NCBI GenBank assembly: GCA_023920165.1
Contig: CP089276.1
Span: 2,108,001-2,172,000 of the forward strand
DNA: 64,000 bases
From: Curvularia clavata
Lineage: Eukaryota
Direction of reading: 5' to 3'
A model generated the notes under the pieces. That model was not told where the DNA came from and searched no databases. It saw only the letters and a program-made list of their open reading frames with translations. A program made the translations under genes and the position numbers. Position 1 is the stretch's first letter, and every line of letters begins with the position of its first letter. Below, piece after piece: positions 3,998 to 45,982 of this stretch.

Positions 3998-4957
3998 AGC
4001 GAGGACGCCGAGAGAAAGGGATACGTTATGTGCAGCCGGCTGCAATCATGTATTTGCTAGAAGACGCTGTACAGAATGGCGAGGTGCAGGCGATTGGAGG
4101 TATGCGGGGTGCCAGGGGGCCGCTTTGAAGAGCTTGAGGTTGAGGATACTGTGGTCGGCCGGCGAGCGTAGGAATGGGTGGATAAGTCGTCTATTGTGCT
4201 TATGGTTGATGCCAGGTTGCGCAGACGGATGCGCGAGGTCGGATGGGGATAGGCGAGAGTTTGTGTCGGCGCCGAACACGATGCAGCCCGGGGCGAACAC
4301 GAAGAGAGCAGCGAGCAATTGGACGAGGGCAATATTCCCTGGCCGGTGGTGAGGTGTTGGAGCGCTGCAACTTCGGAACGTGCTTGAGACCCTCGGTGCA
4401 GGGGACGGGGACGAGGGCGCCGTCGAGGCTTCCAACCATGGCACCTTGCCTGTTTCGGCCGGCAGCCGCTTCCGCGCTACAGCGTGCCTGCCGTCTATGG
4501 GCGGGCGTGTGGAGGCAGGCGCAGACAAGGCGGGCAGGCGCAGGCGCGGCATGGGCAGACGGTGCGCCTCCAGCCATCTCTTTCGCAACCTCCCGCCACC
4601 CCATTCTACGATGCGCTGGCCATGGATATCACCCTCTTCCCTGCTCCCATACCGCTCTTCCTCTTCCTTTGTATATAGCATCTTCCTGTAGTCTGCCAGC
4701 CCCCCCATCATTGCGCTTCCCGTGTGCCACAGTTTTTCTGCGCTGCCCGTCTTTAGGCGCCTCCGCCGCACTGCTACGTTTAATGCCACTAGGTAGCTAT
4801 CACAAATGACACCAGTTGACACGCCTCTCTAAACGTCCATGTGACAGTGTTAGTTGACAACAGAGCTGCCCTTGGCCTGTACTTTGTCCCATCTTGCAGC
4901 CGGCGGTGATAGGCCCCACTCGCTTCACCACCAGCCACTTTATGAGCTCGTCGCAAC

Positions 4958-7900
4958 ATGCAAGACAACCGGGACAGCGGCTCTTACACAGAGCGGACTG
5001 TCAATATCACTATCCACAAGGCCCCCGATAGCTCGGCCCCCAAGCGTGCATCCTACAGTCGCCCAGCCGATGCCCAACCAGCGGCCTCATCTCCACCCGA
5101 GGCCGCCATGTCAAGTACCGTTCCCAGCAACACTGCGAGACCTGTCGCAGCCACCTCCTCGAGCAGTGCCACTCAGAGACGCCGGAACAGCAAGATCATT
5201 TTCCCTCCCACTACAGGTGCAATGGGCGAGTCTATGCCGGCCGCGCCAGACGTACCGCGCGCACCGCCCTCTTCCTACAGAGACCCTTACTCAAGAGGTG
5301 TCAGGGTTCCAGCACGCACAAGCTCGGGACGGGCACGCGACCCAGCTATCCAATTGAACCCGAGCAGACAGCAGGCCACCATCCAAACCGCTGCAGACAG
5401 GCTCTACCACCTACGATCACCCCCATATGCGCCAGTCGAGCCTTTGGCGGGAACCGTAGGGCGGAGGGGCTCGCAGCGTGGGCCCTCTGTGCCTGACCGC
5501 TCACCACTCCAAAAGCTAGAAGGAAAATTGGATGACATCAGCAAAGAGGAGAGAAGAGCGAGGATATTAGAAGCCGAGCTGGCGGCGCAAGAGAAGGCCG
5601 AGGCCGAAGCACGGGAAAGGCGGGCGCGAGAAGCTGCTCAGAAACAGCAGCGAGTTGTGTCTCATCCTGTCCCAGCAACCGAAAACGCCTCCAATGCACC
5701 CAGCCGAGCAAGCAGTAGCAAGCGCCATGTTTCAATGCCGACAGAGAAAAAGCACCCATCTCCACAGATTACCCAATGGGAGCCTGATAATGGCTACATC
5801 CACGACCTCAATGAGCCCTGGGATCCCACACCGCCCGAAGGTGGAGCAGTGCAGCCTGCGCAACAGGCAACCGGACAGAAAGGGCAACTCGTGGCACGAA
5901 GCACTAGTCTAAAAGGCAAAGAGCCGGTTAGGAGCTCACCGCGAAGTGGCACCTTCAGCGACCGGAGCTCACTTCCTTCGCAGCGAGACCAGAAGCCTGC
6001 AACTGATGCTGCAGGGCTTGGCCTGGTAGGTGTAGACGATACCCCAGCGGGAGCTGAAGTCACTCGCGCAGAGAGCAAGAGGATCCAAGGGCGAAGAGAC
6101 AGCAGAGGTATCACGGCGGCGCAGATGGATATGCTGCAAGAGTCGATTGACCACAAGGGGGCCGCCCGCGTAGTCGACATCCCACCGACCAAGCCTCGCA
6201 TGCCGCCCGTACCAAAGACTACGCCCGTCATGCCGCCCGTACCTCAAACCAACCGAAAGAGTGTCGTCTTTTCCGAGTCCGAATCGGAGTTGGATTCGCA
6301 CGATCCCGAGAAAAAGGCTCGCCATCGTTTCAGCCGCCATGGCGACCCAGAAAGGACGTACACGCCTAGGCCCGCACTGGATGAATGGAAAAATGCCCAA
6401 GTCGGCACGCTTGCCGCTGACGACCTCGACCTCAATGCTCCGGTCACAGCCAACAGTGGCAACAAAGCATGGTGGGAAGAAACCAAATTGTCTCGACGCA
6501 GACGCTCAAGCAGTTATGCAGAGCCCAAATACGACGGGTATGCCGACGACACTCACTTACCTACTAGTTTCAACCCACCACTGTATCTCAAGTGTGGACC
6601 GCTTCTGCGCTACACGGGTCTTCGCAAAGACCGCAGCAAGCCAGGGCAAGAGCGAGAGATGTGGCGAGGTAGCGTCATGATCGTGACCGTTGATGCTTCT
6701 TCTTCTTACTCCAAGCCGCCGACGTTACGGCTGTTCAAGCAGCCAATGGACATTTTACCTCCGCCACCAGCAGAAGTTGATCAGGGCCAGCTTGATCCGT
6801 CGTACGTAGATCCCATCGAAGGCCAGATCAAAGTATCGCGAACCGGCAAGACGCTGTACGTTAAACCAATCGACGAGATTGCAGAGGATATGGACCTGTC
6901 GCGTGTTGAAGATGACACCGGTCTGTTTTCTCAGACTCGAAGCACTGCAAACGGATCGGTCGCTAAGTCCACCCGTATCCACAAAAGAGACGGCGAAAAG
7001 CTGGGCAAAGTGCGCGACTTCCCTGGCGTCCGTCTTCACGCTGAGCGGGGTGTGACATTCTGGCGCTTCAACATTGAAGTCGAACTCGGAACCAGCCAGA
7101 CCCGTATCGCTTACAAGATCAACCAGGGTCCGGCCATTGGATTCTGGGTCCCTGCCAAAGGCGAATCTATGAACATCATGTTCCATAGCTGCAACGGGTT
7201 TTCTGCTAGTGTCGACCCGGATGAGTTTTGCGGTCCAGATCCCCTGTGGCGCGACGTCCTCAATACCCATCAGACCCGTCCGTTTCATGTGATGATCGGT
7301 GGTGGAGATCAAATCTACAATGATGCTGCCATGAGGCAGACAACTCTATTTAGACAATGGACTGAGAACAGAAACCCTTTGCACAAGCACCACCAGCCAT
7401 TCTCCGAAGAGATGCAGAACGAGCTCGAGCAATTCTACCTGGACCGGTACTCGATGTGGTTTTCGCAGGGTCTGTTCGGCATGGCCAACTCACAGATTCC
7501 CATGATCAACATTTGGGATGATCATGACATTATCGACGTAAGTGTGAACTCGCGATACTGTCCAATCGTATGCTAACATATTTAGGGCTTTGGTTCGTAT
7601 CCTCATCACTTCATGCAAACGCCCGTGTTCACGGGAGTCGGTGCTGTTGCCTTCAAATACTACATGCTCTTTCAACACCAATCTGTGCCTGCTGAAACGG
7701 AAAAGACGGAGCCCTCGTGGGTACTTGGTAAGAGCCCTGGTCCTTATATCAAAGAGCGCTCCAGAAGCGTCTTCATGCGTCTCGGCCGACCGGTGGCTTT
7801 TCTCGGTCTTGACTGCCGTACAGAACGGCAACGGGACGAAATCCTCACCGAAGACTCATATGACATCATCTTTGACCGTCTCGAGGATGAGATTATCAAG

Positions 7901-10225
7901 GGCGAGACTAAGCATTTGATTGTGCTTCTTGGTGTACCCATTGCTTACCCTCGGCTGAACTTTCTCGAAAATATCCTGACAAGTAGGCTTATGGATCCTA
8001 TCAAAGCTCTTGGCCGTACCGGTATGCTGGGAAACTTCGTCAACAAATTTGATGGAGGCGTGGAAATTCTGGATGACTTGGACGACCACTGGACAGCAAA
8101 GCATCACAAGGAAGAGCGCAACTGGTTCATTCATGAGCTGCAACACATTGCTTCTACCAAATCTGTGCGTGTCACCATCCTTGGTGGTGATGTCCATTTG
8201 GCAGCGATGGGTCAATTCTACAGCAACAAAAAGCTGAATATACCAAAAGACAAAGATCACAGGTACATGCCGAACGTCATCTCCTCAGCCATAGTCAACA
8301 CACCGCCTCCTGATATGATGGCGGATATCATCAACAAACGCAACAAAGTACATCATCTCGATGCAGAGACGGATGAGGACATGATTGCGCTGTTTGACTA
8401 CGGTGTAGATGGGAAAAAGAGGAACAACACTCATCTACTTCCTCACCGGAACTGGTGCAGCATCCGACAGTACAAGCCAGGGTCCACACCATCAGGAACA
8501 CCATCACCACCTGCAACTCCAGATGGCCCTGGCATGGTAAGATCGTTCTCTGACTTTGCGCCGGGTCAGCTGGTGAGAAGGCTGAGTGGGCAGCAGACAA
8601 GGCCCTCTGCACGACGGCCTGGGCCTCCAGTGTCTTACCGCAACAATCCAGCTTATGCTGCTGCCGATGACGAGCAGGTGGGCCACTACCATCAGCCCCA
8701 ATCCTCCTTCTCGCCCGACCGTTCAGACTCGGAAAGACCTGCCCGCCCTCGACGCAATTCCTTGTCCTCACTTTTCCGTCGTCGTCCTTCAATGGATACA
8801 GACCGCCCAGGCACCTCGGAAAGTGCAACGCCTCGGGGTCGTAGGAGCCAGTCGCAAGATCGACCCTCTAACTTCCACCGCCGCCCTAGTGTGCTAAGCA
8901 AGAAAAGTATGAAGAAGCAGGAGTACATCAACCTCGAAGGAGGTCTTGATATTTGCCTTAATGTTGAAGTTTCACAGCACGACCCGGCAGGTATCACAAC
9001 CCCATATCGACTGGTTGTACCGGCACTAGATTATGTCGAACCTGAGCCTGGTACCGAGGAAAAGGAGCCTCGTAAACCCCGAGGTTTTTTCCGTGCATTT
9101 GGTGGAAGACGCAAAGCTACAATTGGCGATGATGGAAATTCTATTTCGGGCAGCGAAAGCGGGAGCGAGCTGGGCGAGATATCCAGTGAAAGTGAGCAGG
9201 AGCGCACGCAACAACAGTACAAAGTCGGACCCAGGGTCATAGTGCCGAATCGACGCGAATCGACCTCTGCTCCCGTCACACCTTCAATCCCAACTCCTGC
9301 CATGGCTTCTGGTTCTGCACCGGCCCCGGCTCCGGCTTCTGGCCCCCGTGATAATCGCCTCAGCTCTGGATTTCATGCCAATATGGCCAGGGCAGCCGGC
9401 CCAAATCAATCTGATGGGGCTGTTCACAATCCTGCACCTCAGAGTCAAGGACGTCGAAGTCTGGACTTTGGTCCGAATGCGGGTGCTAGAGCCTCTGCTT
9501 GGGACAGTGTCACTGCGAAAAGACACGCCAGTGCGCCTCAACATCCTCAAGGGGTGCAGACTGCGACTCAAGCAACTGTGGTTCCATCTCGTTCCGCCTC
9601 CACGCGCAGACAGCCATCGTACAGCAACTCTTCCCACAAGTCTCAACTACCCGCTGCACACCCTGATGAGGGCATAAAGGTACAGAGAAGACCAGTACCC
9701 GGTACTGGAGGTCAGAGCCCATACGGCCTCGCATCAACACCATCGCAAAGGCGGGCTAAGCGTGAATCATACCCACCGCACCCAGCAATTGTCGGTGCGG
9801 GACCAGGTTCGCCATATACACGCGATGGACAGGGTCTTCAGCCCAGGCAAGACACTGCAGGTGGTGACTACTTCAGCAGCGGGGGTCGCGACGGACAAAG
9901 CCACCCTGCAATGGCACCCAGACAGGTGATAGATCCAGAGTACACCGAGAAACCAGTCCAACGAGCCGATTACGCCGCGCAACCACAGCGAGGCGGCTAT
10001 GACAGGACTGCTGCATACCCAGCCTACCCCCAGCGCAATGGCAGCGTTAGCACAGCAAATAGATATCTCGGTGGAGGCAATGGAGATCCATCTGACGATG
10101 ACGACAGCTTCGATAGTGCCGAGGAGGAGGATGTAGGCTTTGGTCAGCAGCATGGAGAGCAGATGAGTCAGGATAGCTTCGTGGTGCCGAAGCGCAAGAA
10201 GAAGTGGCAGATTTGGAAGTCATGA
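4958..10225 (+). CDS. Large (~1739 aa) PhoD-like metallophosphoesterase-domain protein with long disordered flanks; intron 7538-7585
   Basis: ORFs 4958-7576 and 7613-10225 join through GTAAGT...GCTAAC...TAG to give WDDHDIID|GFGSYP; motifs HSCNGFS, GGGDQIYND, LDCRTER, GGDVH. Confidence 0.85.
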
Positions 10226-10758
10226 AGCAGCGAGAGATGCTATAATGAAGGTGTTTAATGCAATCTAGGCCCACTCTTAATTGAGTCCGGACTTGGATTG
10301 GTAATTACGAAGTTACGATTGGAGGTATACCACTGTTTTCTGGGCTGGGAAAAAATCGAGGAACATGATGTTTGGCAGTGCGGCGCGTTTTGCGCAGCCT
10401 GTGTTTTCTTCAACGTTTTTTTTTTCTTTACGTACTAGATATCCTCTGATTTCCTCACGCTCTCCTCCCTAATCGAATATATATGATATTCTTTTCTCGT
10501 TATTCTACGAATAAAGTGGTGCTTGGATTTTAGTATGTGAATTTCTATGGCCTGGCAAGAGCCTTTTCTGAAGAATCTGCACAAAAAATGAGCACAATAA
10601 TCAAACATCAAGTACACGTCTAAACTTCGTCCGTGTACACATGCACTAGCAAAAAGTGAGTTGCGGTGTTTCTCTCTATCGAGAGAAAAAGGCAAAAAAA
10701 GAAAAGAAGGAATAGTCCTGGTGGGGCTGGAAGAGCTGTTAGTAAAGGAAATCGAACG

Positions 10759-10873
10759 AAATCCTGTGCGGGAAAACCTACTTCGAACCCACGGCATCCG
10801 CATAACCCAGATGAGGTCATAAGAGTCTGACGAATCTTATAAGAACGGCGCGCTACCACTGCGCCACAGGACT
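10759..10873 (-). tRNA. tRNA-Ile(TAT)-like gene with 34-nt anticodon intron (10804-10837) and aberrant T-arm; functional or pseudo
   Basis: Minus strand reads AGTCCTG TG GCGC AGTGGTA GCGC G CCGTT CT TAT A [intron] A TGCGG ATGCC GTGGG TTCGAAGTAGGTTTT CCCGC A CAGGATT T. Acceptor, D and T stems pair; the anticodon stem has a T-T at 31-39. A T-tract follows about 55 nt downstream. Confidence 0.8.
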
Positions 10874-11412
10874 TGATGTCCTTGGACTGAATTTTAGTCG
10901 ATTTTGAAATTGCACTAAATATATTGATATAAACAAAAGAGCGGACGATCCAGCGTGATCCGTTCCGAATCTCACGTCGCACAGGCACCACTTTGGATCG
11001 CGAGCGGGGTAATATGACCCATCGATAAGTGATGACACCAAAATCGGCGCTAGCCGCCGGGGTGGCTGGCGTGAGGGGTTGACGAAGCACCGTCCACTTG
11101 GTTCCACGTACGTGTACTACAGTGCCCCTTCACATTTGTTACTTGTCATTCTTGCTCTTTACTGCACACAATCACAATTCAAATATCCAGTTCTCTGGTA
11201 AGTTGCTCTTTCGTTATCTCCCGGTTGAACCTGAGGGCTCTCCAAGTGGCGGTCTGCAACCTTGCATGTTGCTCGTTTGGGATCGTGGACCTCGCGACAG
11301 ACTTGGCTATGTGTGCACGACAACCCCAAGGCTTTGCACAATTATTCTCATCTCATGATATCCTGGGCTGACATTTCGAAGAAGCGCCTGGTTTTTGCAG
11401 GCCACTATTACA

Positions 11413-45899: not shown

Positions 45900-45982
45900 T
45901 GGACGGATGGATGATCGAAATCCAGACCTCCCGCAATTTTGCGTGATGCAAAGCGGGCGCTCTACCACTGAGCTATACGCCC
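45900..45982 (-). tRNA. tRNA-Ala(TGC) with 11-nt intron (45936-45946)
   Basis: GGGCGTA TA GCTC AGTGGTA GAGC G CCCGC TT TGC A [TCACGCAAAAT] T GCGGG AGGTC TGGAT TTCGATC ATCCA TCCGTCC A; G3:U70 and A73 alanine identity elements present. Confidence 0.92.

Follow-up and report, generated by a model that had tools for sequence, protein, structure and literature searches.

The window, that is, the whole 64-kb stretch of DNA that was analyzed and along which all positions are numbered, contains on its minus strand an interrupted tRNA gene that runs from 10873 to 10713. The neighboring genes encode a PhoD-related phosphatase, an S9 peptidase on the plus strand, and a NAT10/Kre33-type acetyltransferase. 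The acetyltransferase gave higher scores with PDB entries 9aym and 5jpq than with 6ke6; 5jpq comes from a filamentous ascomycete and 6ke6 from budding yeast, and the source of the window is accordingly taken to be a filamentous-ascomycete-like fungus. The phosphatase gene (4946-10225, plus strand) consists of two long ORFs of 876 and 879 codons lying about 10 bases apart, which points to a frameshift or a very short intron near 7576-7586. The isoleucine codon ATA is in use in the window, where it accounted for 17 of the 146 Ile codons in four long ORFs.

The tRNA gene has three exons, all on the minus strand. Exon 1 (10838-10873, tRNA positions 1-37) carries the acceptor 5' strand, the D arm with an A-box-like sequence, the anticodon stem 5' strand, and the anticodon TAT at 10841-10839. 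It is followed by a 34-base intron at the canonical place between positions 37 and 38 (10804-10837), which was the intron reported by ARAGORN, and by exon 2 (10782-10803, positions 38-59), which contains the anticodon stem 3' strand, the variable loop, the T stem 5' strand GTGGG, and the first six bases of the T loop. Between positions 59 and 60, this loop is interrupted by 55 bases (10727-10781), most likely an intron of the spliceosomal type. This insert begins with the putative 5' splice site GTAGGT (10776-10781) and ends with the 3' splice site CAG (10727-10729), which was placed by both an RNA joint and the alignment of relatives. Its predicted branch site, TACTAAC (10738-10744), would put the branch A at 10739, 12 bases before the intron 3' end, and directly 5' of it lies the block GTTCGATTTCC (10747-10757), which resembles the B-box consensus. 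Exon 3 (10713-10726, positions 60-73) supplies the last T-loop base, the T stem 3' strand CCCAC, the acceptor 3' strand CAGGACT, and the discriminator A. Downstream of the gene, the sequence contains runs of four T (10705-10702) and seven T (10700-10694). T runs of this kind end RNA polymerase III transcripts.

In the 5' flank and leader (10874-10923, minus strand), 21 of 52 leader columns were invariant among orthologous loci, and these were clustered in a motif of AGTCCA, A or G, and GGAC (10888-10878), which was also present in L005, L008, L009, L010, L011, and L014. The GGAC of the motif is complementary to bases 2-5 of the acceptor 5' strand, and the motif could form a small leader-acceptor hairpin or serve as a promoter element. 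In L016, a locus with no extra intron, a leader stretch is also complementary to its own acceptor strand, and L001 and L003 have no such stretch.

The original prediction ended the gene at 10759 and described a 15-base T loop with eight extra bases. Its letters for 10873-10759 on the minus strand were all confirmed: AGTCCTG stands at 10873-10867, the D arm and anticodon arm with the anticodon TAT are intact, and the 34-base insert at 37/38 (10837-10804) pairs back on the anticodon. The 15 bases between GTGGG and CCCGC can likewise be read in the DNA; as a structure, this T loop did not hold, the eight extra bases being the first eight of the 55-base intron. The end at 10759 proved to be a wrong boundary, and both the RNA contig joint and the removal of the insert in a script placed the true 3' end at 10713. 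The CCCGC, the extra A, the CAGGATT, and the T discriminator (10772-10759), which had been taken for the tRNA 3' end and gave an acceptor 3' strand with one G-U pair, are a look-alike inside the intron, and the anomalies vanished when the intron was removed.

Standard software behaved in a similar way. The Rfam tRNA model (RF00005) aligned the genomic locus as the original prediction had done and gave it 27.4 bits, just below the gathering score of 29; the alignment required 36 extra bases in the anticodon loop, nine T-loop bases where the model has one, and a single extra base ahead of the acceptor 3' strand. ARAGORN made no call at the genomic locus with or without the intron search, its bacterial mode also missed the locus, and at an 80% threshold it returned 134 mostly spurious genes, with none at this locus among the matches listed. 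The locus is therefore a near-miss for standard tRNA tools, because the insert splits the T arm outside 37/38. At the gathering level, Rfam matched only one other tRNA in the window, and a permissive scan of all 64 kb gave this locus and a tRNA-Ala, with no further match. The tRNA-Ala(TGC) gene (45900-45982, minus strand; 48.3 bits) is an ordinary gene with an 11-base intron at 37/38, a G3-U70 pair, one T-C mismatch at 6-67, and no mRNA-type insert; thus, the feature is not general to the tRNA genes of the window.

When the 55 bases were removed in a script, the ARAGORN result changed from nothing found to a tRNA-Ile(tat) of 72 bases with a 34-base intron. The spliced tRNA had an acceptor stem of seven pairs, all of them Watson-Crick, a T stem of five pairs, a 7-base T loop, and A73, the discriminator expected for Ile, and it agreed with the cloverleaf expected of a tRNA (a D stem of four pairs, anticodon and T stems of five pairs, and 7-base loops). 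A U-U pair at 31-39 was common to all 15 loci that were compared. We also removed in turn every GT..AG piece of 35 to 130 bases that started in an 80-base span around the tRNA 3' half, and exactly one such removal gave a tRNA in each of the nine sequences with an insert at 59/60, the window included. With both inserts removed, ARAGORN reported tRNA-Ile(tat) at default settings in 15 of 15 loci. When only the GT-AG insert was removed from L004 and L020, which have a C-A mismatch at 3-70, ARAGORN with the intron search made no call even at a lowered threshold, and unspliced L003 was called in a shifted register.

To compare the locus at the level of RNA and DNA, four public runs were examined over 10400-11400: X3, X4, and X6, which are labeled DNA, and X5, which is presumed to be RNA from the same organism. 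In X5, a 6147-base contig starts at 10878, matches 10878-10782 without a difference, and then joins 10782 to 10726. The joint skips exactly 55 bases, with no shared letters, and the skipped piece has the ends CT..AC on the plus strand, which are GT..AG on the minus strand, indicating that the spliced RNA is a minus-strand transcript. At the neighboring plus-strand peptidase gene, X5 joins 11196 to 11381 and thereby removes a GTAAGT..AG intron with the frame kept; thus, X5 behaves as RNA. The RNA support for a precise removal of the 55 bases is one contig in one run, unstranded and merged with the neighboring plus-strand gene. This contig shows a spliced minus-strand RNA, which is compatible with transcription by either RNA polymerase II or RNA polymerase III and which, as far as the contig goes, may or may not give rise to a tRNA. 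The contig keeps the anticodon intron while the 55-base intron is gone, indicating that the mRNA-type intron is removed first. The X5 contigs leave 10740-10773 uncovered; contigs drop rare forms, so unspliced RNA may still exist.

The joint between 10726 and 10782 was found in none of the three DNA runs. In X3, a single contig of 24,870 bases matched the stretch compared and spans all of it, with the 55 bases unchanged, and, among the contigs listed, those of X4 and X6 cover part or all of the insert with small differences. Had the 89-base 5' part been present twice, a contig of this kind would normally have been interrupted, and we therefore infer that the 5' half is single-copy in the close relative represented by X3; the genome of the window itself may still have an uninterrupted second gene. 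These contigs also bear on the explanation, raised in the original prediction, that the extra bases arose through an error in assembly or sequencing. The insert is present in all three DNA runs and recurs in eight metagenome contigs from other samples, no evidence in favor of an error was found in the material compared, and this explanation has almost no chance of being correct.

The 55-base insert has the signals of a U2-type GT-AG intron, namely GTAGGT, TACTAAC, and CAG, which are kept among relatives while the interior varies. Such signals in a piece of 55 bases are together the marks of a short fungal mRNA intron. The insert is therefore most likely a spliceosomal intron, its dependence on the spliceosome being suggested by these motifs. 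The original prediction had considered a tRNA that needs an unusual extra excision, and in this respect it was partly right: a second intron does lie in the T loop, and it differs from the one proposed in its size (55 bases, not 8), its kind, and its consequences. The comparison with the noncanonical introns of archaea and algae was not upheld, as the signals are a GT, a branch site, and an AG and not a bulge-helix-bulge. Excision of such a bulge-helix-bulge intron by the tRNA splicing endonuclease would have precedents in archaea and some algae, where noncanonical tRNA introns are cut in this way (PMC4090602, PMC3978253). However, at the junctions, the minimum-energy fold of the precursor (computed for the window only) lacks the pair of 3-base bulges that would flank a helix of four pairs, and the elements conserved among relatives are the GT, the branch site, and the AG, with no helix. 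As for self-splicing, 55 bases are far too short for a self-splicing intron. Removal by the endonuclease or by self-splicing is thus very unlikely, and a spliceosomal intron remains the preferred reading. In the predicted fold of the 161-base precursor (window only), the T stem and the acceptor stem close around the intron, which would hold the two splice sites near each other.

Next, we examined related loci in metagenomes. A scan of metagenome contigs with a 30-letter pattern from the tRNA 5' half gave 20 loci, 16 of which were of the fungal type; L013, L017, and L019, which are one odd sequence, and L018, a bacterial-type tRNA, were left out. The alignment with relatives, which the original prediction had proposed, showed an insert of the 55-base type at the same place, 59/60, in 8 of the 16 loci (L005, L006, L008, L009, L010, L011, L014, and L015; 54 to 56 bases), with L006 equal to L010 and L009 equal to L015 over the stretches compared. 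Three of the 16 loci (L001, L007, and L016) had no extra insert. In L003, a 57-base insert lies in the acceptor 3' strand at 68/69, with a GTACGT start, a TACTAAT, and a TAG end. In L004 and L020, the insert is 50 bases long and follows T54 (54/55); it starts with GTAAGT, contains GCTAAC or GCTGAC, and ends with AG. In L012, a GTAAGT start also follows T54 and the contig ends within the insert, and L002, whose contig is cut off, was left out of the classes. Thus, introns occupy three places among the scanned loci (54/55, 59/60, and 68/69). All 12 inserts compared start with GTAGGT, GTACGT, or GTAAGT and end with AG, and all 12 contain a branch-site-like heptamer with its A 9 to 12 bases before the end.

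Seven loci of the 59/60 class share the peptidase-side flank of the window (48 to 190 bases, 72 to 86% identity in a DNA comparison), indicating that they represent one locus in different fungi. For the left flank of the window, the DNA comparison gave no match among the metagenome loci. In the samples with loci of the 59/60 class, no uninterrupted gene was found, although the 30-letter pattern would have matched one.

Seven orthologous loci of the 59/60 class were aligned with their flanks, and invariant columns were counted by segment. All 72 exon columns were invariant, with 36 of 36 in exon 1, 22 of 22 in exon 2, and 14 of 14 in exon 3. The tRNA intron was invariant in 32 of 35 columns, compared to 1 of 19 in the interior of the mRNA-type intron, and this difference suggests that the sequence of the anticodon intron, beyond its mere presence, is under constraint. 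Within the mRNA-type intron, 5 of 6 columns of the 5' splice site (GTACGT in five of the seven aligned orthologues), 16 of 19 columns of the block ending in the branch site (10756-10738), and 6 of 11 columns from the branch site to the intron 3' end were invariant, and TACTAAC was the same in all seven. The look-alike 3' end (CCCGC, A, CAGGATT, T; 10759-10772, minus strand) falls in the variable interior and is not conserved. In the first 12 bases of the trailer, only two columns were invariant.

Between the classes, the acceptor stem differs in sequence and keeps its pairing. Pair 2-71 is G-C, T-A, A-T, or C-G among the loci, and at pairs 1-72 and 6-67 and at T-stem pair 50-64 both sides change between loci, including loci whose two strands lie on either side of an insert. 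An alignment of 13 unspliced genes put the 3' exons of the classes out of register; therefore, covariation was read from the script parse, without a formal pair count.

The conservation bears directly on the possibility that the locus is a decaying tRNA pseudogene, as the original prediction had suggested for a young one, or a tRNA-derived noncoding element, the spliced RNA being a by-product of read-through. The rejection of the locus by standard tRNA finders would agree with this possibility, as would the result that no mature CCA-tailed tRNA was seen in the RNA contigs examined (X5 only). However, the exons are invariant in all seven orthologues while the flanks and the intron interior have diverged, in other lineages the acceptor stem stays paired across the insert through compensatory changes, the insert is precisely removed in RNA, and the X3 DNA contig shows no second copy of the 5' half. 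As judged from these alignments, exon invariance and covariation form the pattern of a tRNA under selection whose 3' part needs joining, and not that of a pseudogene. A pseudogene or noncoding element is thus highly improbable, slightly more so than excision by the endonuclease.

Altogether, the locus is very probably a working nuclear tRNA-Ile(UAU) gene, a reader of AUA codons, with three exons and two introns of different kinds. In the proposed pathway, RNA polymerase III would make the precursor, and the spliceosome in the nucleus would remove the 55-base intron first, thereby restoring the T arm and bringing in the real acceptor 3' strand. The tRNA splicing endonuclease would then excise the 34-base intron, as the position and form of this intron suggest, and tRNA ligase would seal the exons. 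The B-box-like block in the 55-base intron may stand in for the split B box or assist it.

We consider polymerase III to be the probable source of the precursor, ahead of polymerase II. A run of at least five T starts 7 to 20 bases downstream of the gene in 14 of 15 loci, with variable bases in between, and no T run inside the genes is longer than four. The A-box-like region is intact. Against polymerase III, the 55-base intron splits the B box, and in the window it contains a run of four T, which could stop RNA polymerase III early. If the precursor were instead an RNA polymerase II transcript, the tRNA would still be functional and the intron spliceosomal. Such a transcript would either originate in a promoter region that the divergent peptidase gene also uses or be antisense to the phosphatase gene, and once it had been spliced, RNase P and RNase Z would release the tRNA from it. 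Polymerase II is the enzyme to which splicing is ordinarily coupled, and such an origin would also fit the split B box, the TATA-like sequences about 30 bases upstream in L003, L004, and L020, and the occurrence of the spliced RNA in one contig with about 6 kb of neighboring sequence. However, unstranded contigs may merge two overlapping transcripts, and the spliced contig of X5 starts 5 bases before the mature 5' end of the tRNA and 8 bases from the start of the divergent peptidase contig. The start close to the mature end and the T run kept behind the gene speak against polymerase II, which we regard as an unlikely source but one that deserves to be taken seriously. Transcription by polymerase III is accordingly the version carried forward here.

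The nearest known counterpart is the U6 snRNA gene. Introns of the mRNA type are reported in U6 genes, in fission yeast as well as in other fungi (Tani and Ohshima 1989, 1991; Frendewey et al. 1990; all as cited in PMC5855946), and Frendewey et al. are reported to have found a B-box match inside the U6 intron of fission yeast. The two cases agree in that a short stable RNA, from a gene type normally transcribed by polymerase III, has a GT-AG intron with a branch site; the conserved block inside the present intron, which resembles a B box, may be a further parallel. In contrast to U6, the host here is a tRNA and not an snRNA of the spliceosome, its precursor also has an endonuclease-type intron, and the insert splits the B box of its own gene.

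Noncanonical tRNA introns are described for archaea, the red alga Cyanidioschyzon, and nucleomorphs (reviewed in PMC4090602 and PMC3978253). Like those introns, the one found here is a second intron outside 37/38 that causes gene finders to miss the gene. Unlike them (bulge-helix-bulge introns cut by the tRNA endonuclease), it has splice-site and branch-site motifs and no such fold. The terms "spliceosom," "T-loop," and "T-arm" are absent from the text of the 2014 tRNA-intron review (PMC4090602).

The other intron of the gene follows a known pattern. According to a 2025 paper (PMC12530127), the canonical intron of eukaryotic tRNA-Ile(UAU) is required for the formation of pseudouridines 34 and 36 by Pus1. 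In line with this, the gene described here has a 34-base intron at 37/38 that is strongly conserved. The same paper treats the three eukaryotic intron types as apparently unrelated and places the spliceosomal ones in mRNAs and other polymerase II transcripts, a separation that textbooks also make; the present locus departs from that scheme by having both intron kinds in one tRNA gene. Among the full-text papers searched, which largely exclude subscription journals and supplements, none described a tRNA gene with a spliceosomal intron. Here, a familiar type of intron is found in a class of host gene that is new for it.

Both splicing machines appear to be required for this single tRNA precursor, in an arrangement that is conserved among related fungi. 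If this is confirmed, the substrates of the spliceosome extend to tRNA, and the gene would provide a natural system in which to examine whether polymerase III transcripts undergo splicing. If it is the only such gene, these fungi would seem in standard tools to lack an AUA reader, and decoding tables based on such tools would be wrong. The presence of introns at three places in one small gene would also offer a compact system for studying intron gain or movement. The intron might keep the precursor from leaving the nucleus before pseudouridines 34 and 36 have been formed, because without them the UAU anticodon could misread AUG, or the intron might carry the B box of the gene. A broader generalization, which we offer tentatively and with considerable doubt, is that isoleucine tRNA genes transcribed by polymerase III have, in many fungi, repeatedly gained spliceosomal introns at different places, that these introns are kept for a function, and that the spliceosome has become an obligatory, ordered step in the maturation of the tRNA.

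Several further observations concern the insert and the scanned loci. One X4 contig and one X6 contig have one more T in the T4 run of the intron (10773-10776; an A after 10772 on the plus strand). In the T-stem strand of the look-alike 3' end, X4 and four X6 contigs have A for G at 10769, which brings it nearer to the real exon 3; this A could be a hint that the look-alike is the relic of a duplicated 3' end. Tandem duplication of an exon piece bearing AGGT, a model of intron gain, was considered as the origin of the insert and set aside, since AGGT is missing from the junction and the look-alike 3' end varies among the aligned loci. Loose ends in X4 and X6 run from a T loop through a T stem to GTACGT after position 68, the arrangement of L003. 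Among the loci left out of the comparison, L018 is a compact bacterial-type tRNA with a gene-encoded TAT anticodon and lies just upstream of a short ORF resembling ribosomal protein L36. L013, L017, and L019, which are identical over the compared stretch and nonfungal, have a tRNA-like 5' half with a TAT loop, followed by unrelated sequence with no T arm, and they could be a broken tRNA at an insertion site.
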